A stretch of 64,000 bases of DNA from a bacterium. GTDB taxonomy: Bacteria; Patescibacteriota; Minisyncoccia; Moranbacterales; UBA2206. A model generated the notes under the pieces. It saw only the letters and a list, made by a program, of their open reading frames with translations. It searched no databases and was not told where the DNA came from. Where the stretch lies: positions 16,056 through 80,055 of the forward strand of contig JAURXY010000003.1 of the NCBI GenBank assembly GCA_030654225.1, given 5' to 3'. The position numbers were made by a program, and so were the translations under genes. Shown here in pieces: positions 1 through 11,551 of this stretch (position 1 is the first letter of the stretch; each line of letters starts with the position of its first letter).

Positions 1-121
1 ACAATATGTGAAACTTTCCGACACAATAAAAGGCTTCAAAATGATTCTGGATGGACAAATGGATGAAGTGGCGGAACAAGACTTCTATATGAAGGGCAGT
101 ATAACTGAAGTTAAAAAATAA
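1..121 (+). CDS. atpD: F0F1 ATP synthase beta subunit, C-terminal fragment (5' end outside window)
   Basis: Frame ending TAA at 119-121 translates ...[32 protein letters not shown], matching the conserved AtpD C-terminus (..GFKeIleGk.D.lpEqaFYMvGsI.E). atpC follows immediately. Confidence 0.6.
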
Positions 122-135
122 ATTTTTAACTTCAG

Positions 136-163
136 AATTTCTAATTTCTAATTTCTAATTTCT
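136..163. repeat. Tandem heptamer repeat (AATTTCT)x4 in the atpD-atpC spacer
   Basis: Four perfect head-to-tail copies of aatttct read directly from the sequence, immediately before the atpC ATG at 165. Confidence 0.9.
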
Positions 164-164
164 A

Positions 165-605
165 ATGGAGAATTTAAAAATAAAATTCAAAATAGTCACT
201 CCTGAAAAAACTGTTTTCGAAGATGTTGTTGATCAGGCGACTTTGCCGACCACGGATGGGGAAATAACAATCCTGCCAAATCATCGTAGTTATATTTCCA
301 GTTTGAAAGCGGGAGAATTGATGCTTCGAAAAGGCGAGGAAGAAATTTTGCTTTCTATTTCTGGTGGATTTATTGAATTTCACGGCAATGAATTGATTAT
401 TTTGGCCGACACAGCTGAACGAGCGGAAGAAATTGATTTAGTTCGCGCCAAAGAAGGCCGAAAGAAAGCCGAAGAGCTGAAAAACCAAGTTGTTTCAATG
501 GATGAAAATGAATATGCTCGCGTAGCGGCCGCCATCCAAAAAGAATCCGCTCGAATTCGTGTGGCCAGAAAACATCACACAAGAAGAAGTATAAAAACAG
601 ACTAA
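165..605 (+). CDS. atpC: F0F1 ATP synthase epsilon subunit
   Basis: 146 aa. N-terminal beta-sandwich region (KIVTPEKTVFEDVVDQATLPTTDGEITILPNH) and C-terminal helical hairpin typical of AtpC. Directly follows the atpD 3' end. Confidence 0.85.
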   Translation: MENLKIKFKIVTPEKTVFEDVVDQATLPTTDGEITILPNHRSYISSLKAGELMLRKGEEEILLSISGGFIEFHGNELIILADTAERAEEIDLVRAKEGRKKAEELKNQVVSMDENEYARVAAAIQKESARIRVARKHHTRRSIKTD

Positions 606-616
606 TTTTTTATATT

Positions 617-1639
617 ATGAAAAGCAAAATAAATTTACTAATCGAACTTAACAAGAAACATTCCGAATTATTTTGCAGTCAAAAACTGGAGCGTGATTTA
701 TATAGAGCAAAACACCCAACCAATGTAGTGGCTTTTAAATGTATGGATGGACGCATCCATCTTCCGGTTATCACGCAAACTCCATTGGGAATCATCAGTC
801 CTTTTCGCAATATGGGTGGCAGATTTGATTTAGGTTGGCCACTTCTCAATGTTTCTTTTGATGAATCTGTAACTCAGGCGGTTAAAAAAGGATCGCGAAC
901 ATTAGTCCTGGTAACCTATCATTTTTCCAAAGGAGATGTTCACAGAGGCTGTGCCGGTTTCAATTATGATTGTGAAGAATCAAAGAGATCTACAGCAAAT
1001 TTCAGAGATCAGATAAGAAGAATTTATGGGGTGGAAAATCAAGTTGTCTTTCCGGTTTTGATTGGAATTGAAACTGACAAAGATGCTCTGATTTTGCATG
1101 GAGATAATGGAGAGGTTGTTGATGTAAGCACACTAAAAAAGTCAGACGAAGAAAGTTTGCTAACAATTATTCATAGGCTTTTTCCCAATATGCCGGAACG
1201 AATTGTTTTGGATTTCTTGCCAATTATTGCAGGAAATCTAAATCAAATCGGAGAAACAAAAAAACAAAAAATGGAAGCTCAGTTGGCTCATGGTGAATGG
1301 GTTTTGGCAGTGGGAAAAGGTTTTGATTGGCTTCACACTCCGAATATGGCGATGATTGTCGGGCCGTATGATCCTAATATTGGTGAGCCAATTAAGACCG
1401 CGGCGGGTATTATCAAATCCAATTGGGAATCAGGCAGGATTGAAAAAGGGATTGTTATTTTAGCCTCGGCTCTTTATAGTGATGCAGCTGATCGAGCAAG
1501 AACGCAAGAACGAGCGATTTTTATGAAAAAGCTATCGGAAGATATTATGGCTAAAAATTATCCGGAAATGATGAAATATATGAATTCAATAGCGGTGGTG
1601 GTAAACTCAAATACTATGAAAATGGAAGTGATTGAATAA
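617..1639 (+). CDS. Beta-class carbonic anhydrase-like protein (divergent, extended)
   Basis: 340 aa. CMDGR (beta-CA CxDxR zinc motif) then FRNMGGRF (like beta-CA FvxRNxGN), then about 58 residues later HRGC (HxxC zinc motif). Family assignment rests on motifs only. Confidence 0.4.
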   Translation: MKSKINLLIELNKKHSELFCSQKLERDLYRAKHPTNVVAFKCMDGRIHLPVITQTPLGIISPFRNMGGRFDLGWPLLNVSFDESVTQAVKKGSRTLVLVTYHFSKGDVHRGCAGFNYDCEESKRSTANFRDQIRRIYGVENQVVFPVLIGIETDKDALILHGDNGEVVDVSTLKKSDEESLLTIIHRLFPNMPERIVLDFLPIIAGNLNQIGETKKQKMEAQLAHGEWVLAVGKGFDWLHTPNMAMIVGPYDPNIGEPIKTAAGIIKSNWESGRIEKGIVILASALYSDAADRARTQERAIFMKKLSEDIMAKNYPEMMKYMNSIAVVVNSNTMKMEVIE

Positions 1640-1654
1640 TGCAGGTGCGCTCGG

Positions 1655-1685
1655 TTGACAATTTTTTTTAGGGGAGTAATATAAT
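1655..1685 (+). promoter_or_regulatory. Sigma70-like promoter candidate (TTGACA-N17-19-TATAAT) upstream of the NuoB-like operon
   Basis: TTGACA at 1655-1660 followed by aatata/tataat at 1678-1685, in the 120-bp gap before the 1763 CDS. Confidence 0.3.
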
Positions 1686-1762
1686 AGGTGTTTGAGATAA
1701 AATAACTTGGTATATTTTAATTTCGGGTAATTCCGCTTTTTTATTTGTTTTAATTTTCTATT

Positions 1763-2305
1763 ATGAAAGCTTTCAGATTAATAAATATTTTATTGTTTAG
1801 CAAGAAAGTTACTGAGAAAAAGAAAGCTTTTTTTTCGTCCGATAAAGACAAATCTTTTGAAAAAGCAGGGCGGGAGATAAAAGAAATTATTGGGAATCTG
1901 TATGGCGGAAGATCGTTGCGCATTAGAGCGGTGGATGCTGGTTCGACTAATGCCGAAGAAATAGAGCTGACTGCTCTTGGCAACGCCTATTATGATATTG
2001 ACCGATTTGGTTTGAGCTTTGTGGCTTCTCCGCGTCACGCCGATATGTTATTTGTGAGTGGTCCAGTGACGAGAAATCTTGAGAAAGCTTTGCTTACTAC
2101 CTATGAGGCTATGCCAAAGCCTTGCATCGTGGTGGCAATTGGAGACGGTGCTTGTACGGGTGGAATTTGGAAAGATTCTTATGCAGTGGTGGGTCCAGTA
2201 GAAAATGTGATCCCAGTACATTTGAAAATTCCTGGGGATCCGCCTTCGCCAACCGAGATGCTTGTTGGAATACTTCATGCGTTAAAGAATGGAAGCGTCA
2301 ACTAA
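1763..2305 (+). CDS. NuoB/hydrogenase-small-subunit-like protein lacking the N2 Fe-S ligand cysteines
   Basis: DIDRFGL..SPRHADMLFVSGPVTRNLEKAL...PKPCIVVAIGDGACTGGIW...VIPVHLKIPGDPPSP aligns to the NuoB/Ech small-subunit core. The CCxxE motif is replaced by AGSTNAEE and PGCPP by PGDPP. The true start may lie downstream of 1763. Confidence 0.7.
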   Translation: MKAFRLINILLFSKKVTEKKKAFFSSDKDKSFEKAGREIKEIIGNLYGGRSLRIRAVDAGSTNAEEIELTALGNAYYDIDRFGLSFVASPRHADMLFVSGPVTRNLEKALLTTYEAMPKPCIVVAIGDGACTGGIWKDSYAVVGPVENVIPVHLKIPGDPPSPTEMLVGILHALKNGSVN

Positions 2306-4301
2306 ATATATGCTAGAAAATTATATCATTTTTGGAATAGAAATTTATTTTGCCGGTTTGATTTTATCGGCGTTGTTAGCTTTTTTGAATAAATCTTTTA
2401 AGAGCGGAACAAAATTATTTATTTTTTCCAATGGAATTGGTTTTTTGTCAATAATTTTTTATTTTTTATTTTTTTCAAAAGAAACTCTTGTTCTCGCTCA
2501 ATTTAATTGGTTTTTTGAATTTACTCCAAGATTGAATTTTCTTTCCGCGCTTTTCTTTGCAATTATAAGTGGCGTTTCTTGCTTGGTGGGAATTTATAGT
2601 TTGCGATATTTGGAACTTTATAAAAATGATTATAGTCCTCATACAGTTCAATGTTTAATGTCCGGATTTGTTTTAGGAATGCAAGGTGTTCTTTTGTCGA
2701 ATAATGCCTTTGTTTTCTTGCTTTTTTGGGAAGTGATGTCGATCGCTTCATTTTTCTTGGTTTTTTCCGATAAAAAAGAGGAATCAATCAAAGCGGCCTT
2801 CACATACTTCATCATGACTCATTTAGGCGCTTCAGCAATTTTGGGTGGCTTTTTGATTCTAGGTCAAGGCACACTTATTTTTAATTTGGATAATATAACC
2901 ATTGCTTCTCAAAACTTATCGCCGAATTTTTCAAATTTGGCTTTCTTGCTTTTTGTTTTTGGCTTTGGTTCTAAAGCAGGATTGGTGCCTTTCCATGTGT
3001 GGCTTCCCGAAGCTCATCCTCAAGCTCCGAGTAATATTTCAGCGATGATGAGCGGACTGATGCTGAAAGTATCGGTCTATGGATTTATTATGATTATTTT
3101 GAATTTTGTCAATATTCCTGGTTGGGCGGGACTTATTGTTTTATTCCTAGGAATTTTGTCGGGGATGGTAGGGGTTTTATATGCAGTAGTAGAAAGAGAT
3201 ATGAAAAAAGCATTTGCTTATAGCAGTATAGAAAATATGGGCATTATTTTTACAATGCTCGGGCTAGCGATTTATTTATTATCTTTTGGTAACTATCAAA
3301 TAGTGGCTTATTCCATAATCGCTTTTGCTATTTTCCACGCGCTGAATCATGCCCTGTTTAAATCAGCGCTTTTTCTTTCCAGTGGAATAATAATAAACCG
3401 AGTGCATACTAAAAGTTTGGAAATGATGGGTGGGATTGCCAAGTTGATGCCGATTTTCAGCTTGGCTTTTCTTCTCGCTATTTTGGGATCTTTACCGTTG
3501 CCATTATTTGGAACTTTTTATGGAGAATGGGGTCTTATTCGAAACAGCTTAACCTTAATGGGGGAATCAAGTGTTAGCTCGAATACGGTTATTCTATTAC
3601 TAGCTGTTATTTCTTTTGTGGCGATGATCAGCGGGCTGGCGATTTTTGCGATGGTAAAAATTTTTGGTATTTCAATGTTAGGATTACCACATAACCCTCA
3701 TATGGAAAAAAGAAATGAGCGTGCCGATTTTCTTTTGATTGTGCCGGTGCTTTTTTTGGCCGGTGGAGTGATTGTTTTTGGTTTTTTGGCAAAATTTATT
3801 ATTTTTCATATAACAAATTATTTGCAAACAGTTAATTTTTATTCTGCTCATACAATAACTTCTCCGATGGATATTTCTTCATTCTGGATAAGTGGCGCGA
3901 TTATTTTTACTGGCTTGGTAGTATATATTTTCCAAAAAATATTATTAAAAAATAAAAAGGAGCGAAGTTATCACACTTGGGACTGTGGTCAACCAATTGA
4001 TGCAACAATGCAATATAGCGCCACCGCTTTTTCTGCTCCGATAAGATTTTTCTTTCTTTCCTTTATCGGTAGAAAAAAATCAATGCAGTCAACTCCTATA
4101 GTAGAAACAAATCCTTGGATCAGAAAATATAACTTTGAGCTGTCTATTCGTTCGACTTGGAATGATGCGCTGTATGCTCCGATTGCGAAAAGTTTGCATT
4201 TTATGGCTGAGAAAATACGCTTTATTCAAAATGGTCGCATCCAATATTATATTTTGTTTCTCCTCGGCGCTCTAATTATCACTTTAATTTTTGCTTTATG
4301 A
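2289..4301 (+). CDS. NuoL/MrpA/HyfB-like antiporter-type membrane subunit
   Basis: 670 aa polytopic protein with the family signature HVWLPEAHPQAPSNISAMMSGLMLKVSVYG. Overlaps the previous and next genes (operon). Confidence 0.75.
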   Translation: MEASTKYMLENYIIFGIEIYFAGLILSALLAFLNKSFKSGTKLFIFSNGIGFLSIIFYFLFFSKETLVLAQFNWFFEFTPRLNFLSALFFAIISGVSCLVGIYSLRYLELYKNDYSPHTVQCLMSGFVLGMQGVLLSNNAFVFLLFWEVMSIASFFLVFSDKKEESIKAAFTYFIMTHLGASAILGGFLILGQGTLIFNLDNITIASQNLSPNFSNLAFLLFVFGFGSKAGLVPFHVWLPEAHPQAPSNISAMMSGLMLKVSVYGFIMIILNFVNIPGWAGLIVLFLGILSGMVGVLYAVVERDMKKAFAYSSIENMGIIFTMLGLAIYLLSFGNYQIVAYSIIAFAIFHALNHALFKSALFLSSGIIINRVHTKSLEMMGGIAKLMPIFSLAFLLAILGSLPLPLFGTFYGEWGLIRNSLTLMGESSVSSNTVILLLAVISFVAMISGLAIFAMVKIFGISMLGLPHNPHMEKRNERADFLLIVPVLFLAGGVIVFGFLAKFIIFHITNYLQTVNFYSAHTITSPMDISSFWISGAIIFTGLVVYIFQKILLKNKKERSYHTWDCGQPIDATMQYSATAFSAPIRFFFLSFIGRKKSMQSTPIVETNPWIRKYNFELSIRSTWNDALYAPIAKSLHFMAEKIRFIQNGRIQYYILFLLGALIITLIFAL

Positions 4302-5893
4302 GCCAAATAATAATCATATTAATCCAAGTCATTTTTATTTTAGCCGTAGCTCCGCTTGCTTCAGGCTTGGTGCGTTTTTTTAAGGCGCGTCTTCAAGGTA
4401 GAGATGGAGCTTCGCCTTTTTTACCGTACGTTACTTTGGCTACATTATTGCGCAAAGAAATGGTTATATCAGAGACTACCTCTTGGATTTTTAGGATAGT
4501 GCCTTTTGTAGTTTTTGGAAGCGTTCTTTTTCTGTCCGCTTTTATGCCACTTATTTTCAGAGGAATGAGCGTGCCTTTTTTTAGTGATTTTTTGGTTATT
4601 GCTGGAGTATTGGTGATCGGTTCAATTTTTTTAGTGTTGGGAGGCTTGGATGCCGGTAGTGCTTTTGGAGGAATGGGATCTAGTCGGGAAATGACAATTT
4701 CTGCTCTCATCGAACCGGTTATGATTTTAGTTTTTTCCGCCGTTAGTTTTTCAACTAAGGAATTTACAATTGATGGAATGTTGTCTAGCCAGACATTATT
4801 CCAACCATATTTAATATTGACCATAGTAGCTTTGATATTAGTGGCATTAGCAGAAAATGCTCGTTATCCGGTGGATAATCCCGCTACTCATCTTGAGCTC
4901 ACGATGGTGCATGAAGCGATGCTTTTGGAATATTCCGGAAAATATTTAGCCATACTCGAATATGCTTCTGCTATAAAGTTAGTTATTTTTTCTTTACTTA
5001 TCTCAAATTTTGTTTTTCCTTCCTTGCTTGTGGGAGCAGTTTCATGGAGCATAGGTTCTCTGATGACTATTTTATTTTTTAGTCTAATAAAAATCATCAT
5101 AGCTATGTTAGCACTGGCCTTTATTGAATCCGTTCTGGTTAAGATGCGATTTTACAGAATGTCAGAATATTTTTCCGTAGCTTTTGTGGTGGCTTTTCTT
5201 GGCATGGGCGCAACACTTATGTCCAAATTTACTAATATGGTTATAGAATATCATACTATGTTTTCGCTTTTTACGGTGGTGTGTATCGTGATTCTTTTTG
5301 GTCGAGTGCGTTTGAAAGCGATTTTGCGTTACTATGCCTTTTCTTCTTTAGCCATTGCCGGAATTGCTTGGGGACTAATTCCTTTAGTTTCCGAAACGGA
5401 AAAAATTCATCTATGGTTATTTGCAATTTTCACAATTATTACCAAGGCAATAGCAGTGCCGTATGTCATTAACCGTTCCAGCCATGTCAAAAAAAGTTTG
5501 ACAAACCTACCTTCATTTTTGCGTCCGGGAAAGAGCTATTTTTTAGCAGTTATTCTTTTGGTTATAACCTATTTTACTTTGGAAAATGTTTCTATTATAG
5601 GGCTGGCTAAATGGAGTTCATTGCTCTATTGCGCCGTCACTTTGATTGTTTTAGGCATAGCAATGATGATTATCAAGCGAAATATTTTTTCTCAGATTAT
5701 CGGTCTTCTGGTGATTGAAAATGGTATTGCAGTTTTTGTTTTGGCTACTGTTGGATCTCTTCCAATTACGATTGAATTTGGCATTTTTGCAGTAACTGTT
5801 GCTACGGCATATATTTTGGCTATATTAAGTGGGCAAATTAGTGATTTATATGGAAGCACCGACACGGAAGATTTACGAGAACTAGCTGAATAA
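4298..5893 (+). CDS. NuoH/HycD-like membrane subunit with C-terminal extension (possible NuoK/HyfE-like fusion)
   Basis: N-terminus RFFKARLQGRDGASPFLPYVTLATLLRKE and RYPVDNPATHLELTMVHEAMLLEYSGKYLAILEYA match the NuoH/HycD signature (E.EL..G...EYsG). It is about 200 aa longer than NuoH. ATGA overlap with the upstream gene. Confidence 0.6.
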   Translation: MSQIIIILIQVIFILAVAPLASGLVRFFKARLQGRDGASPFLPYVTLATLLRKEMVISETTSWIFRIVPFVVFGSVLFLSAFMPLIFRGMSVPFFSDFLVIAGVLVIGSIFLVLGGLDAGSAFGGMGSSREMTISALIEPVMILVFSAVSFSTKEFTIDGMLSSQTLFQPYLILTIVALILVALAENARYPVDNPATHLELTMVHEAMLLEYSGKYLAILEYASAIKLVIFSLLISNFVFPSLLVGAVSWSIGSLMTILFFSLIKIIIAMLALAFIESVLVKMRFYRMSEYFSVAFVVAFLGMGATLMSKFTNMVIEYHTMFSLFTVVCIVILFGRVRLKAILRYYAFSSLAIAGIAWGLIPLVSETEKIHLWLFAIFTIITKAIAVPYVINRSSHVKKSLTNLPSFLRPGKSYFLAVILLVITYFTLENVSIIGLAKWSSLLYCAVTLIVLGIAMMIIKRNIFSQIIGLLVIENGIAVFVLATVGSLPITIEFGIFAVTVATAYILAILSGQISDLYGSTDTEDLRELAE

Positions 5894-5917
5894 TTTATTT
5901 TTAAGTCTTAAATTTTT

Positions 5918-7399
5918 ATGAATCCAAATATTCTAATCATTCCATTTATACTAGCTTTCATTTTTTCGGTTGTTGCAAAAAATGAAAAAGTAGCGCGACT
6001 AAGCAATCTAGTATTTTCTTTGATTGGAGGATCGGCTTTGATTTTTTATGCAACGTCTTTTCTTATTTTCTCTCAAAATAAATTAATAAGTTCATGGTGG
6101 AGAATGGATGATTTTTCTGCTTTAATGGTAATTCTTATTGCAATTATTTATATCTTTTGCGTGATAATTAGTTTTCGCTATATCGGACATGAGTATGAGG
6201 AAAAAATTATCACCCTGTATCAGTATAAGTTATATTTTGCATTGTTTCAGCTATTTGCATTGTGTATGATTCTGGTTATTTTCACTAATAATTCGTTATT
6301 GCTTTGGTTGGCGCTGGAAGGAACAACTCTTTTCTCCACTTTTTTAGTTGGATTGTATCGTAAAAAAACCAGCATAGAAGCCGCTTGGAAATATATGATT
6401 CTTTGCTCGACTGGCATTAGTTTGGGTTTGGTGGGGATTTTGCTTTTGAGCTATGGCGCTCATGTCGGCGGAGTGGCGGAAGGTAATATTTTTTTATTAA
6501 ATCATCTGGCTGATAATGCCCAACTTATTCCAAAAAATATCATAAAATTAGCTTTCATATTTTTATTCATTGGCTTTGGAACAAAAGTTGGTTTGGCGCC
6601 AATGCATACTTGGCTTCCGGATGCTCACAGCAAGGCGCCATCTCCTATCTCGGCTATTTTTTCAGCAGTTCTTTTGAATGTTGCGCTCTATGCCATCCTA
6701 CGTTTTAAATTTATTACTGATAGTGCTTTTATGGATGCATCTTGGACGAATAATTTATTTTTGATTTTCGGTTTTTGCTCGGTGATTTTAGCGGCATTTA
6801 TGATGCTTATTCAAACAAACTATAAAAGGATGCTGGCCTATTCCAGTATCGAGCATATGGGAATAATTCTTTTTTCTCTGGGGCTTTCTCCGATTGGTGC
6901 GGTGGCTGGCGTGATGCATATGATTGGACACACCTTTGCCAAGTCGGCTTTGTTTTTTGGAGCAGGTGAAATTTTGATTCGATGGAAAACGACAAAAATT
7001 TCCAAGATAAAAAATATGTTCAAATATGCAAGATATACTAGCATTCTTTTTATCCTAGGAATCGTGGCAATTATTGCTATTCCGCCTTCAGCTTTGTTTG
7101 TGAGTGAATATGGTATGTTTGCTCAAGCAATTATTTTCCATCCGGTGGCGTCCCTCTTTTTGTTTATTGCTTTGAGTATTATTGCCTATGCTATGCTGTC
7201 TATTTCGATCAGAATGATTTTTGACACTGAAGAAGAAGTTTCAGAAAATAAGCTGGGAAAAGAAAAATGGAACATCACGCATACGATAATTGTTTTGGAA
7301 ATTTGCGTGTTGATATTTTTAGCCTTTTGGTTTACAACTGGAAACGCAATGGAGATAACTAATAATATAGTAAAAGATTTTTTATTTATTAAACAGTAG
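5918..7399 (+). CDS. NuoM/NuoN/MrpD-like antiporter-type membrane subunit
   Basis: 493 aa membrane protein carrying HTWLPDAHSKAPSPISAIFSAVLLNVALYAILRF, the Mrp/NuoLMN family motif. Confidence 0.75.
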   Translation: MNPNILIIPFILAFIFSVVAKNEKVARLSNLVFSLIGGSALIFYATSFLIFSQNKLISSWWRMDDFSALMVILIAIIYIFCVIISFRYIGHEYEEKIITLYQYKLYFALFQLFALCMILVIFTNNSLLLWLALEGTTLFSTFLVGLYRKKTSIEAAWKYMILCSTGISLGLVGILLLSYGAHVGGVAEGNIFLLNHLADNAQLIPKNIIKLAFIFLFIGFGTKVGLAPMHTWLPDAHSKAPSPISAIFSAVLLNVALYAILRFKFITDSAFMDASWTNNLFLIFGFCSVILAAFMMLIQTNYKRMLAYSSIEHMGIILFSLGLSPIGAVAGVMHMIGHTFAKSALFFGAGEILIRWKTTKISKIKNMFKYARYTSILFILGIVAIIAIPPSALFVSEYGMFAQAIIFHPVASLFLFIALSIIAYAMLSISIRMIFDTEEEVSENKLGKEKWNITHTIIVLEICVLIFLAFWFTTGNAMEITNNIVKDFLFIKQ

Positions 7400-7408
7400 T
7401 TTTATTTT

Positions 7409-8971
7409 ATGAATATTCAAGAAATTATTAAAACTTTTGCAGGAAAAATAACAGATGTAGTCGAAAAGAATGATTTGATATGCGCCAAAGTATCTCGCGA
7501 TGATTTGGCTGATATTTCGACTAAATTATTTCAAGAGTATAAGCTACCGCTATCTCTTCTTTTCGGTACAGATAATCGCAAGAAAAATGGAAATTTTGAA
7601 GTGCATGTTATTTTTAGTTTAGATGACGAACATAAATGGTTGAAAATTTCCGCTGAAGTGCCTGAAAGTGATCTGCAATATCCTTCGTTAACAAAAACGA
7701 TTATGGTGGCGCATTGGTATGAAAGGTATTTACGAGACATGTTTGGCGTTGTTCCTGTTGGACATCCGGACTTGCGAAGATTAGTGCATCATGAAAATAT
7801 TCCAGAAAATACGCATCCTTTACGCAAAGATTTTCAGTGGAATACAAAATTATCCAAAGATAATGTGTCATATCCGATGCATCATGTGACTGGTGAAGGA
7901 ATATTTGAAATTCCGGTTGGACCAATTCATGCGGGTATCATTGAGCCGGGACATTTTCGTTTTAATGTGGCCGGAGAAAGAATTCTAACCCTAGAAGGAA
8001 AATTGTTTTTTACTCATAAAGGAGTGGAGAAATTATTAGAAGGAAAAAATATTGATGAAGCCTTGCCTTTCATTGAAAGAATCTCGGGAGATATGAGTGC
8101 TTCACATTCTTTGGCATATGTGCAGGCGGTGGAAAAAATCAGCGGTTGTGTTGTGTCAAAAAGAGTGCAAATGCTTCGAGCGATTATCACTGAATGTGAG
8201 AGAATCACGATGCATATTCATGATTTGGCCAATATTGGAGGAATGGGAACGGGCTTTAGTTTTATCGCTGCCAATGGATTTCGCATTAAAGAAAGAATGA
8301 TGCGCTTGTCAGCGGATATTTGTGGTAATCGCTTTTGGCGAGGAATGATTGTTCCGGGAGGAATAAAAAGTGATATTAAAAAAGAAAATTTAGAAAAAAT
8401 ATTAGAAATATCACAAGAAGCTTGGAACGAAATAAACAAAATTACTACCGTTGCTTTGGATGACGAAGGCTTTTTGGATCGCTTGCAATATACCGGCGAA
8501 CTTCCCAAAGAAGCAGCCGAGGCTTTTGGCGCAGTCGGTTTTCCGGCACGTGCTTCTGAAATTAATCGAGATGTGCGTCGAGATCATCCATATGCTTCAT
8601 ATGCAGACTTTCCAATCAAGGTTATTACTAAGAAAAGTACTGATGTTTTTGCCCGCTATCGAATAAGGATAAAAGAAATTGAGCAATCAATAATTTTGCT
8701 CAAAACTTTGGTGGAAAAAATAGAGGAAGGAAGTGTTTTTGAAAAATGCGAAGTGAAAGACGGTTTTGCGATTGGCGCTGTTGAATCTTGGAGAGGTGAA
8801 ATTGTTTGCGCTTTGCAAATTAAAAATGGCGTGATTGAAAGATGCTATCCGCGCGACCCGTCTTTTTGTAATTGGGCGCTTTTCGGTATTATGGGTCCTG
8901 GTAATATCGTTCCTGATTTTCCACTCATCAATAAGAGTTTGAATCTGTCGTATTCGGGGAATGATTTGTAA
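7409..8971 (+). CDS. NuoC-NuoD fusion-like / [NiFe]-hydrogenase large-subunit-like protein lacking Ni-Fe ligand cysteines
   Basis: N-terminal NuoC-like region (WYERYLRDMFGV...GHPDLRRLV) and NuoD/HycE-like region (GPIHAGIIEPGHFRF...). The N-terminal RxCGxC and C-terminal DPCxxC Ni-Fe motifs are absent (C-terminus reads RDPSFCNWALF). Confidence 0.75.
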   Translation: MNIQEIIKTFAGKITDVVEKNDLICAKVSRDDLADISTKLFQEYKLPLSLLFGTDNRKKNGNFEVHVIFSLDDEHKWLKISAEVPESDLQYPSLTKTIMVAHWYERYLRDMFGVVPVGHPDLRRLVHHENIPENTHPLRKDFQWNTKLSKDNVSYPMHHVTGEGIFEIPVGPIHAGIIEPGHFRFNVAGERILTLEGKLFFTHKGVEKLLEGKNIDEALPFIERISGDMSASHSLAYVQAVEKISGCVVSKRVQMLRAIITECERITMHIHDLANIGGMGTGFSFIAANGFRIKERMMRLSADICGNRFWRGMIVPGGIKSDIKKENLEKILEISQEAWNEINKITTVALDDEGFLDRLQYTGELPKEAAEAFGAVGFPARASEINRDVRRDHPYASYADFPIKVITKKSTDVFARYRIRIKEIEQSIILLKTLVEKIEEGSVFEKCEVKDGFAIGAVESWRGEIVCALQIKNGVIERCYPRDPSFCNWALFGIMGPGNIVPDFPLINKSLNLSYSGNDL

Positions 8972-8996
8972 TTTTAGTTGACAATCTGAGATTTAA

Positions 8997-9037
8997 AACA
9001 GCGTTTTCTGGTATTATTCGGAAAACGCTGTTTTTTC
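8997..9037 (+). terminator. Rho-independent terminator after the NuoCD-like gene
   Basis: Perfect 12-bp stem aacagcgttttc/gaaaacgctgtt with a 11-nt loop, followed by a T-run. Confidence 0.65.
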
Positions 9038-9091
9038 TTGAAATAAATGAAAAAATGAGATAGAATAGGAAAGTATTAATAAATCTATTTT

Positions 9092-11551
9092 ATGGAAAAA
9101 TATAATCCTGAGATTATTGAGAGAAAATGGCAAAAATATTGGGCTAAAAACCCTGATAATTTTAGCGCTAAAGATGAATCGGGGCAGGAAAAAGCCTTTA
9201 TATTAGACATGTTTCCCTATCCGTCGGGGACAGGGCTTCATGTGGGGCATGTGGAGAGTTATACGGCAACAGACATATATTCAAGGTATCTTCGAATGAA
9301 CGGGAAAAACGTGCTTCATCCACAGGGTTTTGATGCCTTTGGGCTACCGGCGGAAAACTATGCGATAAAGACGGGAATTCATCCAAAAGAGACAATTTCC
9401 AACGCGGTGGAGGTTTTCAAGCGTCAAATTAATTCACTCGGTTTTTCTTATGATTGGTCGCGGGAAGTCAATTCATCAGATCCAAAGTATTATAAATGGA
9501 CACAGTGGTTGTTTTTGTTGTTTTATAAAAATGGTTTGGCGTACAAGAAAAAAGCCAAGGTGAATTGGTGCCCTAAATGTCAAACGGTTCTCGCGAATGA
9601 ACAGGCAGAAAATGGCAAGTGCGAAAGATGCGAATCGGAAGTTATTCAAAAAGATCTTGAGCAATGGTTTTTCAAAATTACCGACTTTGTCGAGGATAAG
9701 GGAAAAACTTCAGGACTACTTTCGGGACTGGAAAAAATTGATTGGCCAAATTCAACAAAATCATTGCAAAAAAATTGGATTGGAAAATCCGTTGGCGCGC
9801 AGTTCAAAATGCAAATTGAAAATACTGATAAGTTTATTGAAGTTTATACTACAAGAATCGATACTGTTTTTGGAATGACTTATGCGGTGGTGGCGCCGGA
9901 ACATGAAATTGTCGCTTCACTCCTCAAAGTCGAAAGTCGAAAGTCAAAAGTGAAAAGGGAAATTCAAAATTTAAAAATAGAAAATTCAGATGAGATAGGG
10001 AAGTATGTGGAAGCTTCAAAGAAAAAAACGGACCTTGATCGAATGGAAGCTAAAGAGAAGACCGGAGTAGAAATTAAGGGGATAAAAGTTATCAACCCAT
10101 TTAATGGTGAGGCGTTGTCACTGTTTGTAGCAGATTATGTTTTGTCGCAATATGGAACAGGAGCGGTGATGGCTGTGCCAGCGCATGACGAACGCGATTT
10201 TGAATTTGCGAAAAAATATAATTTAGAAATTAAAGAAGTTATTTCTGGTGATAAGAAAGACAAAGAAATACTTACTGATGATGGAATTTTGATAAATTCT
10301 ACTGAGTATAATAATTTAGAATCTGGTGAAGCTCGAGAAAAATTGACGGCGTGGCTAGAAGAGAAAAAAATTGGGCAAAGAAAAATAAATTATAAACTTC
10401 GTGATTGGTTGGTAAGTCGTCAAAGGTATTGGGGTGCGCCGATTCCGATAATTTATTGTGAAAAATGCGGTGAAGTGCCGGTGCCGGAAAAAGATTTGCC
10501 GGTTGAACTTCCGGATGATGTGGATTTCAAACCGACTGGAGAGTCTCCGCTAAAATATTCCAAAAAATTTCAAGAAGTTAAATGTCCGAAATGTGGAGGG
10601 GAAGCCAAAAGAGAATCGGATACAATGGATACCTTTGTTTGTTCCAGTTGGTACTATTTGCGCTACGCTGATTCAAAAAATGAAAAAGAATTTGCTTCCA
10701 AAGAAAAATTGGAAAAGTGGCTTCCGGTTGATCTTTATGTTGGCGGAGCGGAACACAGTGTGCTTCATCTTCTCTATGCTAGATTTTTCACCAAGGTTTT
10801 GCATAATTTGGGATACCTAAATTTTGACGAACCATTTTTGAAACTGCGTCACCAAGGAACAATTTTGGCAGAGGATGGAACAAAAATGTCAAAATCAAAA
10901 GGCAATGTAGTCAATCCAGATGATGTAGTGAAAGAATTTGGTGCTGATGCACTGCGAATTTTTGAAATGTTTATGGGACCATTGGAAGATATGAAACCTT
11001 GGCAGACCAAAGGCATTGTGGGCGTGTATAGATTTTTGGAAAAAACATGGAAAATGCAAACAAGAATCAATGATCAAGAAACAGGAGACAGCAAATTAAA
11101 TAATCTAATTCATAAGACTATCAAAAAAGTTGGTAAAGATATTGAAGAAATGAGATTTAATACTGCTATTTCGGCTCTAATGATTCTTGCTAATGAAATG
11201 GAAAAACAAGAAAAAATCCAAATTACTAATTACCAATTACTAATTACACTTTTATCTCCTTTCGCACCTCATCTTGCTGAAGAACTTTGGGAAAAGTTAG
11301 GACACAGTGAATCAATTTTCAAAGAAGAGTGGCCCACATATGATCCGGAAATGATTAAGGACGAAGAAATAGAGCTTATTATTCAAATCAACGGAAAAGT
11401 GCGCGATAAGATAATTGTGAGTGCGGATATTTCAGAAGACGAAGCGAAAACGATTGTGCTTGAAAGAGAAAAAGTTAAAAGTTATATATTGGGAAGGGAA
11501 ATTAGAAAGATCATATTTGTTAAGGGGAGATTAATTAATATTGTTTTTTAG
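9092..11551 (+). CDS. leuS: Leucyl-tRNA synthetase
   Basis: 819 aa with a HIGH-type motif (PYPSGTGLHVGHVESY), KMSKS, and editing and anticodon-binding regions collinear with LeuRS. Confidence 0.95.
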   Translation: MEKYNPEIIERKWQKYWAKNPDNFSAKDESGQEKAFILDMFPYPSGTGLHVGHVESYTATDIYSRYLRMNGKNVLHPQGFDAFGLPAENYAIKTGIHPKETISNAVEVFKRQINSLGFSYDWSREVNSSDPKYYKWTQWLFLLFYKNGLAYKKKAKVNWCPKCQTVLANEQAENGKCERCESEVIQKDLEQWFFKITDFVEDKGKTSGLLSGLEKIDWPNSTKSLQKNWIGKSVGAQFKMQIENTDKFIEVYTTRIDTVFGMTYAVVAPEHEIVASLLKVESRKSKVKREIQNLKIENSDEIGKYVEASKKKTDLDRMEAKEKTGVEIKGIKVINPFNGEALSLFVADYVLSQYGTGAVMAVPAHDERDFEFAKKYNLEIKEVISGDKKDKEILTDDGILINSTEYNNLESGEAREKLTAWLEEKKIGQRKINYKLRDWLVSRQRYWGAPIPIIYCEKCGEVPVPEKDLPVELPDDVDFKPTGESPLKYSKKFQEVKCPKCGGEAKRESDTMDTFVCSSWYYLRYADSKNEKEFASKEKLEKWLPVDLYVGGAEHSVLHLLYARFFTKVLHNLGYLNFDEPFLKLRHQGTILAEDGTKMSKSKGNVVNPDDVVKEFGADALRIFEMFMGPLEDMKPWQTKGIVGVYRFLEKTWKMQTRINDQETGDSKLNNLIHKTIKKVGKDIEEMRFNTAISALMILANEMEKQEKIQITNYQLLITLLSPFAPHLAEELWEKLGHSESIFKEEWPTYDPEMIKDEEIELIIQINGKVRDKIIVSADISEDEAKTIVLEREKVKSYILGREIRKIIFVKGRLINIVF

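Follow-up and report, generated by a model that had tools for sequence, protein, structure and literature searches.

A 64-kb stretch of DNA from a Moranbacterales bacterium of the Candidate Phyla Radiation (CPR) encodes, directly behind the end of its ATP synthase operon, a carbonic anhydrase (CA) and a five-subunit membrane module of the energy-converting-hydrogenase-related (Ehr) family in which the ligands of all redox cofactors have been lost. We refer to the whole stretch (GenBank assembly GCA_030654225.1, contig JAURXY010000003.1, positions 16,056 to 80,055; GC ~36%) as the window; its nearest relatives are Candidatus Moraniibacteriota metagenome-assembled genomes (MAGs). The module subunits, EhrS, EhrA, EhrB, EhrD and EhrL, are homologs of parts of respiratory complex I and of group 4 [NiFe]-hydrogenases (Table 1), which raises the question of what such a machine does once its redox centres are gone. 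The conserved gene neighbourhood makes it well supported, and in our judgement probable, that the redox-free Ehr module, CA activity and the ion circuit of the F-type ATPase are functionally connected. As to how, an energy-coupled CO2/HCO3-/H+ system, on the lines of the CO2-hydrating machines DAB and NDH-1MS compared below, is the single most likely mechanism if looser forms of coupling are included, and one to which we give slightly less than even weight.

An initial annotation, made from the sequence of the window without database searches, had proposed five co-directional, overlapping genes for homologs of NuoB, NuoL/MrpA, NuoH, NuoM/N and a NuoC-NuoD fusion. All five lie where it placed them, on the plus strand, with Pfam and NCBIfam matches far beyond chance; two of their junctions do overlap (by 17 and 4 nt), and the other two are gaps of 24 and 9 nt. 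The two antiporter-like subunits match Proton_antipo_M at 6e-49 and 1e-51, and EhrA also matches the solved structures of HycC (3e-50) and MbhH (3e-45). EhrL, with Complex1_49kDa (9e-41) and Complex1_30kDa (4e-23) domains, aligns with HycE at 7e-75, and the best solved-structure matches of EhrS are MbhJ (2e-25) and HycG (7e-24). The C-terminal extension that had been noticed on the NuoH homolog, EhrB, exists and is a fused HyfE/NuoK-like domain at residues ~324-529 (PF00420 3e-7 at 442-529, NF008556 1e-14 at 324-529), which follows a NuoH/HycD-like domain at ~1-300 (NADHdh, PF00146, 4e-27 at 6-289; HycD 4e-30); the two domains are separate genes in a second clade, typified by locus L100 (loci of relatives carry L numbers here). 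Hydrogenase-like large and small subunits sit in one cluster with NuoH/HycD-like and antiporter-like subunits, as in the Ehr family (Pfam, NCBIfam and PDB matches), and profile searches, alignments and a large-subunit tree all place the module in that family, in agreement with the annotation.

In an alignment with the solved structure of HycE, the EhrL segments RISGDMSASHS and NLSYSGND stand opposite RVCGICGFAHS and DPCYSCTD, respectively. All four NiFe cysteines are substituted and both CxxC pairs (L1 and L2) are gone, as had been claimed; the substitutions are common to all CPR homologs, and the former active-site motifs, SGD..H and NLSYSG.D, are invariant across Ehr. The initial annotation had also seen three of the four cluster cysteines missing from the small subunit. 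That loss is real and goes further: aligned with solved structures, EhrS GSTNAEEIE corresponds to GSCNGCDIE of MbhJ/HycG and GDPP to GCPP, and the third canonical Cys (GAC in HycG and MbhJ, GSC in NDUFS7) corresponds to a Gly, giving four substitutions out of four, by T, E, G and D. A Cys nearby, in GDGACTGG, lies two residues beyond the third ligand position; it is replaced by Ile (GDGAIDGG) in most close relatives (L006, L007, L086 and L087). Cysteines hidden in another frame or behind another start, the possibility on which the annotation had made its reading depend, were ruled out, as the open reading frames (ORFs) are unambiguous and the substitutions are shared by dozens of homologs.

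Electron-transfer partners are likewise missing. The six frames of the window hold no ferredoxin-type CxxCxxCxxxC motif; neither the window nor the clusters of CPR relatives contain a NuoE/F/G/I-like gene or 4Fe-4S motif, as the annotation had stated for the window; and 16 CPR loci lack genes for formate dehydrogenase, NuoE/F or HycF, their Ehr clusters consisting of S-A-B(E)-D-L only. A hidden NuoI/HycF subunit or ferredoxin was ruled out on these grounds, with no motif in six frames and no extra gene in the 16 CPR clusters. The complex I parts found in the window are B, CD, H, a K-like domain and two L/M/N-like subunits, with NuoE/F/G/I/A/J not found. The defining features of a group 4 [NiFe]-hydrogenase, namely the NiFe cysteines and an Fe-S wire that includes the HycF/NuoI-type 2x[4Fe-4S] subunit, are thus absent, as are those of respiratory complex I (cluster N2 ligands and NuoE/F/G/I/A/J). 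No hyp maturation genes are evident in the ORF map of the window, in which no search aimed at these was made.

To place the module among its relatives, we scanned metagenomes with an EhrL alignment, which yielded 80 loci, and sorted these together with the genome loci by motif extraction. Three classes emerged: true hydrogenases, in which the CGxC and CYxC motifs are present and the small-subunit cysteines intact (class 1); Ehr with a Cys-less large subunit and an intact small-subunit cluster, which make up most of the family (class 2); and Ehr in which both subunits are stripped of ligands (class 3). The small-subunit cluster cysteines are kept in 47 of 67 classifiable Ehr loci and lost in 20, so that the window, which does not retain the proximal [4Fe-4S] ligands, departs from the Ehr majority. 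In a distance-based neighbour-joining tree of 93 large subunits, built without curated reference sets and including 13 Cys-containing hydrogenases, the window falls within a monophyletic CPR Ehr clade, all of class 3, apart from those 13 sequences; the phylogeny that the annotation had called for therefore puts the module away from bona fide hydrogenases. The same tree shows a second Fe-S-less clade (L100, L102, L106, L096 and L115) and a singleton, L154, which indicate two or three independent losses of the small-subunit cluster. The former Cys positions are mostly polar or acidic in both of the Fe-S-less clades (T, E, G and D in the main CPR clade; D/S, C/T, D/E and N in the L100 clade). Judged from these residues, the EhrS replacements could reflect a new polar or cation-binding site rather than collapse of the pocket.

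The complex is nonetheless strongly conserved, which makes the CPR clade a natural experiment: all redox centres are gone and the machine has been kept. EhrA retains the TM5 Glu (FWEVMS), TM7 Lys (GSKAG), TM8 His (HVWLPEAH) and TM12 Lys (LFKSALF) of ion-translocating subunits (TM, transmembrane helix); EhrD, read in translation, retains LEGTT (TM5 Glu), GTKVG (TM7 Lys), HTWLPDAH and FAKSALF; and the NuoH loop of EhrB, ENARYPVDNP..ELTMVHEAMLLEYSG, is kept. In comparison with L006, the closest relative, the Ehr genes have a ratio of nonsynonymous to synonymous substitution rates (dN/dS) of 0.08-0.11 and the CA gene one of 0.035; dS is saturated between relatives, so these values are upper bounds and the true ratios are lower. 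Identity between window and L006 is 72-88% for the Ehr and CA proteins together and 72-80% for the Ehr proteins alone, compared with 60% for LeuRS and 66% for atpC. Among the Ehr subunits conservation peaks in EhrL, at 79-80% identity to L006 and L086, and the two peripheral subunits, EhrS and EhrL, are better conserved than the other three, with 77-80% for the NuoB/NuoCD/NuoH-like proteins vs. 70-74% for the antiporter-like ones. The module is under strong purifying selection and is not decaying. Since the redox centres are gone and the complex is yet conserved above housekeeping genes, its core job is not electron transfer.

The CA gene starts 11 nt past atpC. The initial annotation had called it beta-CA-like and linked it to the DAB and Cup systems; its zinc motifs are indeed intact, and its PF20686 (CsoSCA_cat) match (1.4e-7, 31.6 bits vs. 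a cut-off of 21.5) makes it CsoSCA-type, not DabA- or Cup-type. In an alignment with CsoSCA 2fgy the Zn ligands C42, H102 and C112 and the D44-R46 dyad are kept, and all five residues are invariant across 15 diverse homologs. An AlphaFold2 model (mean local confidence, pLDDT, 90) gave CsoSCA structures as best Foldseek matches (8thm, 2fgy and 9g4t; E ~1e-17, TM-score 0.71-0.75); the predicted fold matches two-domain CsoSCA, with a short N-terminus in which the catalytic motif begins at residue 42. The protein is therefore CsoSCA2, the compact non-carboxysomal form, and a predicted enzyme with all catalytic residues. The ORF map of the window shows no evident carboxysome or RuBisCO genes, though no search aimed at these was made in it, and tblastn found no gamma-CA, Pro_CA_2 or SulP gene within the window. 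The CsoSCA2 family is large (>2,292 proteins, and at least 569 loci in GTDB species-representative genomes), with hosts in CPR, Nitrosomonas, Thiobacillus, Thiodiazotropha, Marinobacter, Nitrospira and others. The non-carboxysomal CsoSCA2 copy of Nitrosomonas oligotropha is a direct homolog (45% identity).

Is the CA next to the Ehr module by chance? For an unbiased view from the Ehr side, we took nine CPR main-clade loci that had been found via EhrL and have full flanks (L086, L087 and L169-L175). The ATP synthase genes that had been noted beside the module in the window are confirmed there, and atpD-atpC lie just upstream of Ehr in 9/9 of these loci, with atpC-Ehr gaps down to 10 nt (L169 and L174); the upstream genes are atpHAGDC in L169, atpAGDC in L170, atpD-atpC in L086 and L087, and atp genes in L171 to L175. 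A CA-family gene follows directly 3' of EhrL in 7/9, and it belongs to three different families: CsoSCA2 in L169 and L174, Pro_CA_2 in L087 and L175, and gamma-CA in L171, L172 and L173. In L086 EhrL is followed by leuS, with no CA, and in L170 by a 185-aa protein without a family match. The gamma-CAs of the relatives match the CcmM N-domain model at 1e-39 to 1e-49 and Cam-type CA at 1e-35 to 1e-39, have the active CcmM gamma-CA domain 3kwc as best PDB match (1e-32) and show RADEG..QD..HGL..AH..HGP with the Zn histidines included; the Pro_CA_2 proteins score 61.5 and 37.6 bits against a Pfam threshold of 30 and carry CLDFR and HHSDC motifs.

The CA-side view, from 80 genome loci holding CsoSCA2, gives a full Ehr module after CsoSCA2 in four Moraniibacteriota-type loci (L006, L007, L014 and L015). 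The gene order varies: CsoSCA2-Ehr in the window, L007, L014 and L167 (LGT-CsoSCA2-Ehr), CsoSCA2-Ehr-gammaCA in L006, CsoSCA2-Ehr-Pro_CA_2 in L015 and, in L166, Ehr with two CsoSCA2 paralogs after it. The synteny with the CA gene that the annotation had asked about in relatives thus holds in the sense that CAs of three families flank CPR Ehr, the exact CA-Ehr order not being universal. Of 16 distinct CPR loci altogether, 13 lie after atpC and 14 adjoin one or more CA genes; in L014, L015 and L167 the CA-Ehr adjacency occurs away from atp genes. Conversely, atp-CsoSCA2 without Ehr is found in L008, L016, L017, L020, L024 and L044; in L008, whose CA is 82% identical, the order is atpC-CsoSCA2-leuS. 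L100, which is Patescibacteria by its atpD (83-84% identity to L020 and L044), has an EhrL only 43% identical to that of the window and belongs to the second Fe-S-less clade, yet shows the order atpD-atpC-Ehr. The atpD tail of the window is 67% and 50% identical to atpD of L086 and L100, respectively, over the last 38-39 residues (tblastn).

Outside CPR, the association recurs without atp genes in seven loci (L031, L058, L074, L082, L094, L095 and L137). Nitrospirae-like L094 and L095 hold Ehr-SulP-CsoSCA2 with class-2 Ehr, the whole flanked by sigma-54 two-component regulators; in Sulfuricella and Thiobacillus (L074, L082 and L031) a class-2 Ehr operon headed by SulP is convergent with CsoSCA2; and in L137 a gamma-CA directly follows a non-CPR class-2 Ehr. 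The L137 gamma-CA (6109-6849) has an N-terminal hydrophobic segment, MKRFGNVVLGVSIAGNLVLAGLMLSGF, which suggests a membrane anchor or export signal, and because of this segment the protein might act at the outer face of the membrane. No recurrent redox partner was found near non-CPR Ehr, where the flanking-ORF clusters are mainly histidine kinases and sigma-54 regulators; two-component regulators are all that most of these loci show in the vicinity.

The three pairwise associations, atp-Ehr, atp-CA and Ehr-CA (the latter also off atp and outside CPR), are independent. Chance gene order or a generic insertion hotspot is very unlikely because three CA families, of which gamma is an unrelated fold, fill the same slot by EhrL, and such swapping of families in one conserved position is a classic sign of functional pairing. 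At 1-2 CA genes per ~1,000-gene genome, adjacency in 7/9 loci is orders of magnitude above expectation, even if counted as 3-5 independent events. The ATP synthase operon is the most strictly conserved Ehr neighbour (9/9, vs. 7/9 for CA).

We propose that the module acts as a redox-cofactor-free Ehr in which a NuoH/NuoK-type channel and two antiporter-like ion paths would be capped by NuoB/NuoCD proteins that bind neither NiFe nor an Fe-S cluster. Electron transfer could not drive such a module, which would instead be coupled to an ion gradient; with no redox input, it must use or convert that of the ATPase. The ATP synthase c subunits of L007 (4333-4581) and L008 (3695-3943), ...GPGIGIGILASKA...AFAEAVAIYALV, lack the Gln and Ser/Thr of Na+ rings (Q...E-S/T), which rules out a Na+-type ATP synthase there, and the ATPase of the closest relatives of the window looks H+-coupled. 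Since these c subunits are of the H+ type, fermentative ATP most likely fuels an H+-type F1Fo ATPase that sets up a proton gradient. In the cytoplasm, the only fast reaction by which protons are made or consumed is the one catalysed by CA. The module might then move protons across the membrane, or swap H+ for Na+ across it, in step with cytoplasmic CO2 + H2O <-> HCO3- + H+, the power coming from the ATPase-generated proton-motive force in place of redox chemistry. Ion translocation, a physical or kinetic coupling to CA, the direction of the reaction and its purpose, be it bicarbonate supply or cytoplasmic pH control, are what we infer from these data. In its strictest form, CO2/HCO3- acid-base chemistry would replace redox: CO2/HCO3-/H+ turnover, sped up by a swappable soluble CA (CsoSCA2, gamma-CA or Pro_CA_2), would be coupled to ion translocation via the conserved, cofactor-less NuoB/NuoCD/NuoH interface, and the module would share one circuit with the H+ F-ATPase, a version that we consider unlikely. 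The resemblance to CUP/DAB systems seen by the annotation survives as a recurrent CA-Ehr neighbourhood; there is no dedicated CA subunit, and "vectorial CO2 hydration" is an analogy here.

Several observations weigh against an energy-coupled CO2/HCO3-/H+ system. The partner CAs are ordinary soluble enzymes, also found without Ehr, rather than a dedicated DabA/Cup-like subunit, and a free cytosolic CA short-circuits bicarbonate accumulation in vectorial systems, which argues for looser coupling (proton supply or buffering) over DAB-like concentrating. The gain for a CPR fermenter of spending proton-motive force on CO2 hydration is not evident. At about 16 CsoSCA2 loci of CPR no Ehr lies within 10 kb, no recognisable CA is present at the CPR Ehr loci L086 and L170, nor at L100 or the partial loci L096, L102 and L106, and in an unbiased sample of ~47 non-CPR Ehr loci, many of them on short contigs, a CA is nearby in only 3. 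The adjacency of CA and Ehr could also be partly indirect, given that each is located where the atp operon ends. Finally, the locus sample is small, MAG-derived and phylogenetically non-independent, consisting of MAG and metagenome contigs of which some are evidently mis-binned (CPR-like sequences under Micavibrio, Bdellovibrionales and Gammaproteobacteria labels).

The main rival, which takes up some of these points, is a Mrp-like Na+(K+)/H+ antiporter that runs on the F-ATPase proton-motive force, serving pH or sodium homeostasis or energising Na+-dependent uptake, e.g. by SulP/BicA-type bicarbonate carriers, with CO2 hydration itself neither energised nor vectorial and the CA helping through loose coupling, as a source or buffer of cytoplasmic protons. 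We regard it as possible, if on the whole rather unlikely. The nearest relatives of the membrane subunits include MrpA/MrpD and MbhH, a NuoK/MrpC-like domain is present, and, given the H+-type c subunit, a sodium gradient would need a separate converter. Moreover, swappable soluble CAs of three families suit coupling by diffusible H+/HCO3- better than a docked subunit, a bicarbonate-concentrating pump would be undone by CA free in the cytosol, and the SulP-Ehr-CsoSCA2 trios of Nitrospirae and Sulfuricella are in keeping with a Na+/HCO3- symporter whose Na+ is recycled. However, true Mrp does without NuoB, NuoCD and NuoH, which are here the most conserved proteins of the module; the invariant SGD..H and NLSYSG.D motifs suggest that the cap has a specific task; and equivalents of MrpB, E, F and G are absent. 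That CA and Ehr are unlinked, each being drawn to the 3' end of the atp operon as a permissive site or by shared high expression, with Ehr assisting or regulating the ion circuit of the ATP synthase, for instance as a gated proton return path, would explain the six atp-CsoSCA2 loci without Ehr, the atp-Ehr loci without CA (L086 and L100) and the stricter atp link. It is hard to square with CA-Ehr adjacency off atp, in three CPR and seven non-CPR loci, and with three non-homologous CA families in one slot after EhrL, which a generic hotspot would not give, and we consider it improbable.

A redox role is more remote still. An unlinked partner (formate dehydrogenase, ferredoxin or a NuoEF-like protein) might feed a new large-subunit site through non-Cys ligands or an organic cofactor, and it is true that most classifiable Ehr loci keep the small-subunit cluster, that a combination of formate dehydrogenase and Ehr has been proposed in Margulisbacteria and Saganbacteria (PMC6349859), and that the NiFe cysteines are replaced by invariant polar residues. 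In this clade, however, the four cluster ligands have become T, E, G and D, conservation does not extend to the nearby Cys, and neither a ferredoxin-type motif in 64 kb nor a formate dehydrogenase, NuoE/F or HycF gene in 16 CPR loci was found. We know of no quinones or respiratory chains in CPR organisms of this type, which also counts against such an enzyme, and we rate it as very improbable. A relic, i.e. a decaying hydrogenase-4 operon without function, could account for the loss of all cofactor ligands and for the patchy presence among close relatives (L008 lacks Ehr); it is scarcely credible and effectively refuted by conservation, given five intact ORFs in at least 16 divergent CPR loci, dN/dS of ~0.1 or lower, conservation above LeuRS and atpC, retained ion-path residues and hundreds of homologs at 60-85% identity.

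The atp-Ehr-CA pattern makes the question of Ehr function testable, and suggests a proton/CO2/bicarbonate machine tied to the sole primary ion pump of the cell. If an energy-coupled system of this kind is real, it would explain pH or bicarbonate management in ultra-small fermentative bacteria, would represent a new class of energy-coupled CAs, of interest to engineers of CO2-concentrating mechanisms, and would mean that the coupling machinery of complex I works without redox chemistry. Should the stricter acid-base version apply, it would be the third independently evolved energy-coupled inorganic-carbon/proton class, after NDH-1MS/Cup and DAB, and the first function assigned to the widespread Ehr family.

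Table 1. Features at the 5' end of the 64-kb window (region 2-9092; positions count from the first nucleotide of the window).
Feature	Position	Strand	Evidence or remark
atpD 3' end (F1 beta), last 39 codons, cut at window edge	2-118	+	tblastn
atpC (F1 epsilon), final F1Fo operon gene	165-605	+	PF02823 1e-23, PF00401, TIGR01216 above cut-off
CsoSCA2-type (compact, non-carboxysomal) beta-carbonic anhydrase, 340 aa	617-1639	+	PF20686
Spacer between CA gene and ehrS, 123 nt	1640-1762		
Candidate sigma-70-like promoter for ehr genes, TTGACA-16-TAATAT	1655-1682	+	best-scoring site in a scan of 1-9300
Short conserved hairpin and T-run, CGGGTAATTCCG-CTTTTTT	1724-1742	+	39 nt upstream of ehrS start codon
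EhrS, NuoB/HycG/MbhJ-like small subunit, 180 aa	1763-2305	+	Oxidored_q6 (PF01058) 4e-23
EhrA, HyfB/HycC/NuoL-type antiporter-like subunit, 670 aa	2289-4301	+	NF005086 (hydrogenase-4 subunit B) 8e-141
EhrB, NuoH/HycD-like + HyfE/NuoK-like fusion, 531 aa	4298-5893	+	PF00146, PF00420, NF008556
EhrD, HyfF/NuoM/N-type antiporter-like subunit, 493 aa	5918-7399	+	NF005045 (hydrogenase-4 subunit F) 1e-103
EhrL, NuoC-NuoD (HycE/HyfG-like) fusion, 520 aa	7409-8971	+	PF00329 + PF00346
leuS	from 9092	+	next gene past EhrL

The spacer in front of ehrS has an unusual order of stop codon, promoter, terminator-like element and start codon (Table 1). 'TTGACA..GGAGTAAnAT' is kept in the corresponding spacer of L006, L007, L014, L167/168 and L175, and a hairpin with T-run is found at -32 to -75 of ehrS in L006, L007, L014, L167/168 and L086, the last of which keeps it at a locus without a CA gene. 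From this arrangement the leader could be an attenuator; its fold is no more stable than shuffles (z = -0.1), and an Rfam search of 1-9300 for riboswitches and known RNAs gave a single chance-level match. The terminator scan also picked up a 13-bp inverted repeat with a 5-nt loop, CTGAAGTTAAAAA-ATAAA-TTTTTAACTTCAG, at 105-135, across the end of atpD (~118) and the atpD-atpC spacer. No gene lies between the EhrL stop at 8971 and leuS at 9092, so the gamma-CA of L006 has no counterpart in the window; that L006 ORF (8669-9157), of only 162 aa compared with 201-268 aa elsewhere, may be truncated. The remaining window genes are housekeeping genes (glmS, glmM, topA, ribosomal proteins and similar).

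Other features of the relatives' loci are recorded here. A ~185-aa family (L170 11640-12197; L016 9041-9487; L115 8506-8961, minus strand) adjoins Ehr in L170 and L115 and CsoSCA2 in L016; its motifs 'VCGDGD' and 'HYPCAA' recall beta-CA zinc sites, and it has no Pfam or NCBIfam match. In L172, a gene for a GGDEF protein (diguanylate cyclase) and then one for a 334-aa protein, which matches no family and carries CSDGR and HDEC motifs, lie between atpC and Ehr (coordinates of the region 3390-4394 and 2313-3383), and L166 likewise has a GGDEF gene there (195-1142). Neither the 185-aa nor the 334-aa protein, both with CxDx...HxxC-like motifs, could be accepted as a CA: hhalign against the CsoSCA2 profile (probability ~1% or less), BLASTP against Pro_CA_2 and Pfam at E<=1 were all non-significant. 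Tandem CsoSCA2 paralogs occur in L017 (8835-9839 and 10001-11035) and L166 (8710-9849 and 10001-11113), those of L166 sharing only 24-29% identity with one another and with other members of the family. L017, labelled Gammaproteobacteria, is by its CPR-like atpD (73-75% identity) probably a mis-binned contig, and L010 (Bdellovibrionales) and L015 (Micavibrio) look mis-binned likewise. In Nitrospira and other Nitrospirae (L027-L030, L038 and L070) SulP lies immediately upstream of CsoSCA2 as a conserved pair. Nitrosomonas L001 (520-11053; also L035, L039, L040, L063 and others) has a PF00361 gene, a 1,090-aa DabA, three more PF00361 genes and then CsoSCA2, an unexpected case of a free CA beside a vectorial CA system, and Thiobacillus L002 (4480-11059) has cbbL-cbbS-cbbQ-cbbO, a 98-aa ORF and CsoSCA2 on one strand, with a DabA and PF00361 operon 2 kb off on the opposite strand.

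How does the system compare with those already described? CPR Ehr and CsoSCA2 are each already known; their atp-Ehr-CA context was not found in the literature. The Ehr family was reportedly founded on a paper by Marreiros and colleagues from 2013, in which Fe-S-less small subunits may already have been noted, and it ranges over CPR, Nitrospira, ammonia oxidisers, Margulisbacteria, Elusimicrobia and Geobacter. Papers on Ehr call its function unknown or propose a redox role or partners. Jaffe et al. 2020 (PMC7304191) described CPR group-4-related large subunits as a monophyletic Ehr subclade without metal-binding cysteines that "likely cannot interact with H2", and do not mention ATP synthase, antiporter or carbonic anhydrase. 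The window resembles these CPR Ehr in gene family, cluster type, loss of both CxxC pairs and position in the same monophyletic CPR clade, which differs from most Ehr in having lost the small-subunit cluster and in the fusion of the NuoH-like and HyfE-like proteins. We found no paper tying Ehr to carbonic anhydrase, or to ATP synthase in CPR, and the pattern could still be published. As for the CA, Sutter, Kerfeld and Scott 2022 (PMC9164163), in the passages that bear on it, describe compact CsoSCA2 with all catalytic residues in autotrophs and heterotrophs, link it to cbbLS and call it unstudied; those passages make no mention of CsoSCA2 beside ATP synthase operons, Ehr, SulP or DAB-like operons. 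The window CA shares with that CsoSCA2 a length of ~340-370 aa, a short N-terminal domain and an active plus a defunct beta-CA domain.

Among characterised machines, E. coli Hyf/Hyc (PDB 7z0s) is the best match of every subunit (HyfB, HyfF, HyfE, HycE, HycG, HycD and HycC), and the NuoC-NuoD fusion and the HycC-type C-terminal region are shared with it. The window differs in having no NiFe site, proximal Fe-S cluster, HycF/HyfH, HyfA, HycB, HyfD or formate dehydrogenase, and in placing the small subunit first. With Mrp it shares MrpA/MrpD-type subunits carrying the TM5 Glu and TM7/TM12 Lys, a NuoK/MrpC-like domain and independence of redox; the seven-subunit MrpA-G, on the other hand, has no NuoB, NuoCD or NuoH homologs, and the window has no MrpB/E/F/G-like ORFs in 617-8971.

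DAB (DabA/DabB) of chemolithoautotrophs is an energy-coupled CA made of a beta-CA-fold protein and a NuoL/Mrp-type subunit. As in DAB, a beta-CA-fold gene of the window stands beside NuoL/Mrp-type subunits without redox input, which leaves an ion gradient as the sole plausible source of energy, whereas its CA is a free-standing CsoSCA2, swappable with gamma-CA or Pro_CA_2, and five subunits including NuoB, NuoCD and NuoH homologs take the place of one DabB; DabA (PF10070) has no match among the window proteins and was seen at the proteobacterial L001 and L002 only. NDH-1MS and NDH-1MS' (CupA/CupB) are CO2-hydrating complex I variants driven from ferredoxin to plastoquinone, with Fe-S clusters kept. 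The window would resemble them as a complex-I-lineage membrane machine with a link to CO2 hydration, the latter by analogy only; it differs in having no redox centres, the Cup proteins are unrelated to CsoSCA2 or gamma-CA, and no Cup-family (CupA/CupB = ChpY/ChpX) Pfam match was obtained among the window proteins. Finally, mitochondrial complex I of plants and protists likewise carries a gamma-CA-fold protein on a complex-I-lineage arm, comparable to the gamma-CAs at L171-L173, L006 and L137, and its gamma-CA 6x89_G2 is a weak PDB match of the relatives' gamma-CA. In plants these proteins are structural components of a complex that is redox-active, whereas the CPR gamma-CAs look like active CcmM/Cam-type enzymes.

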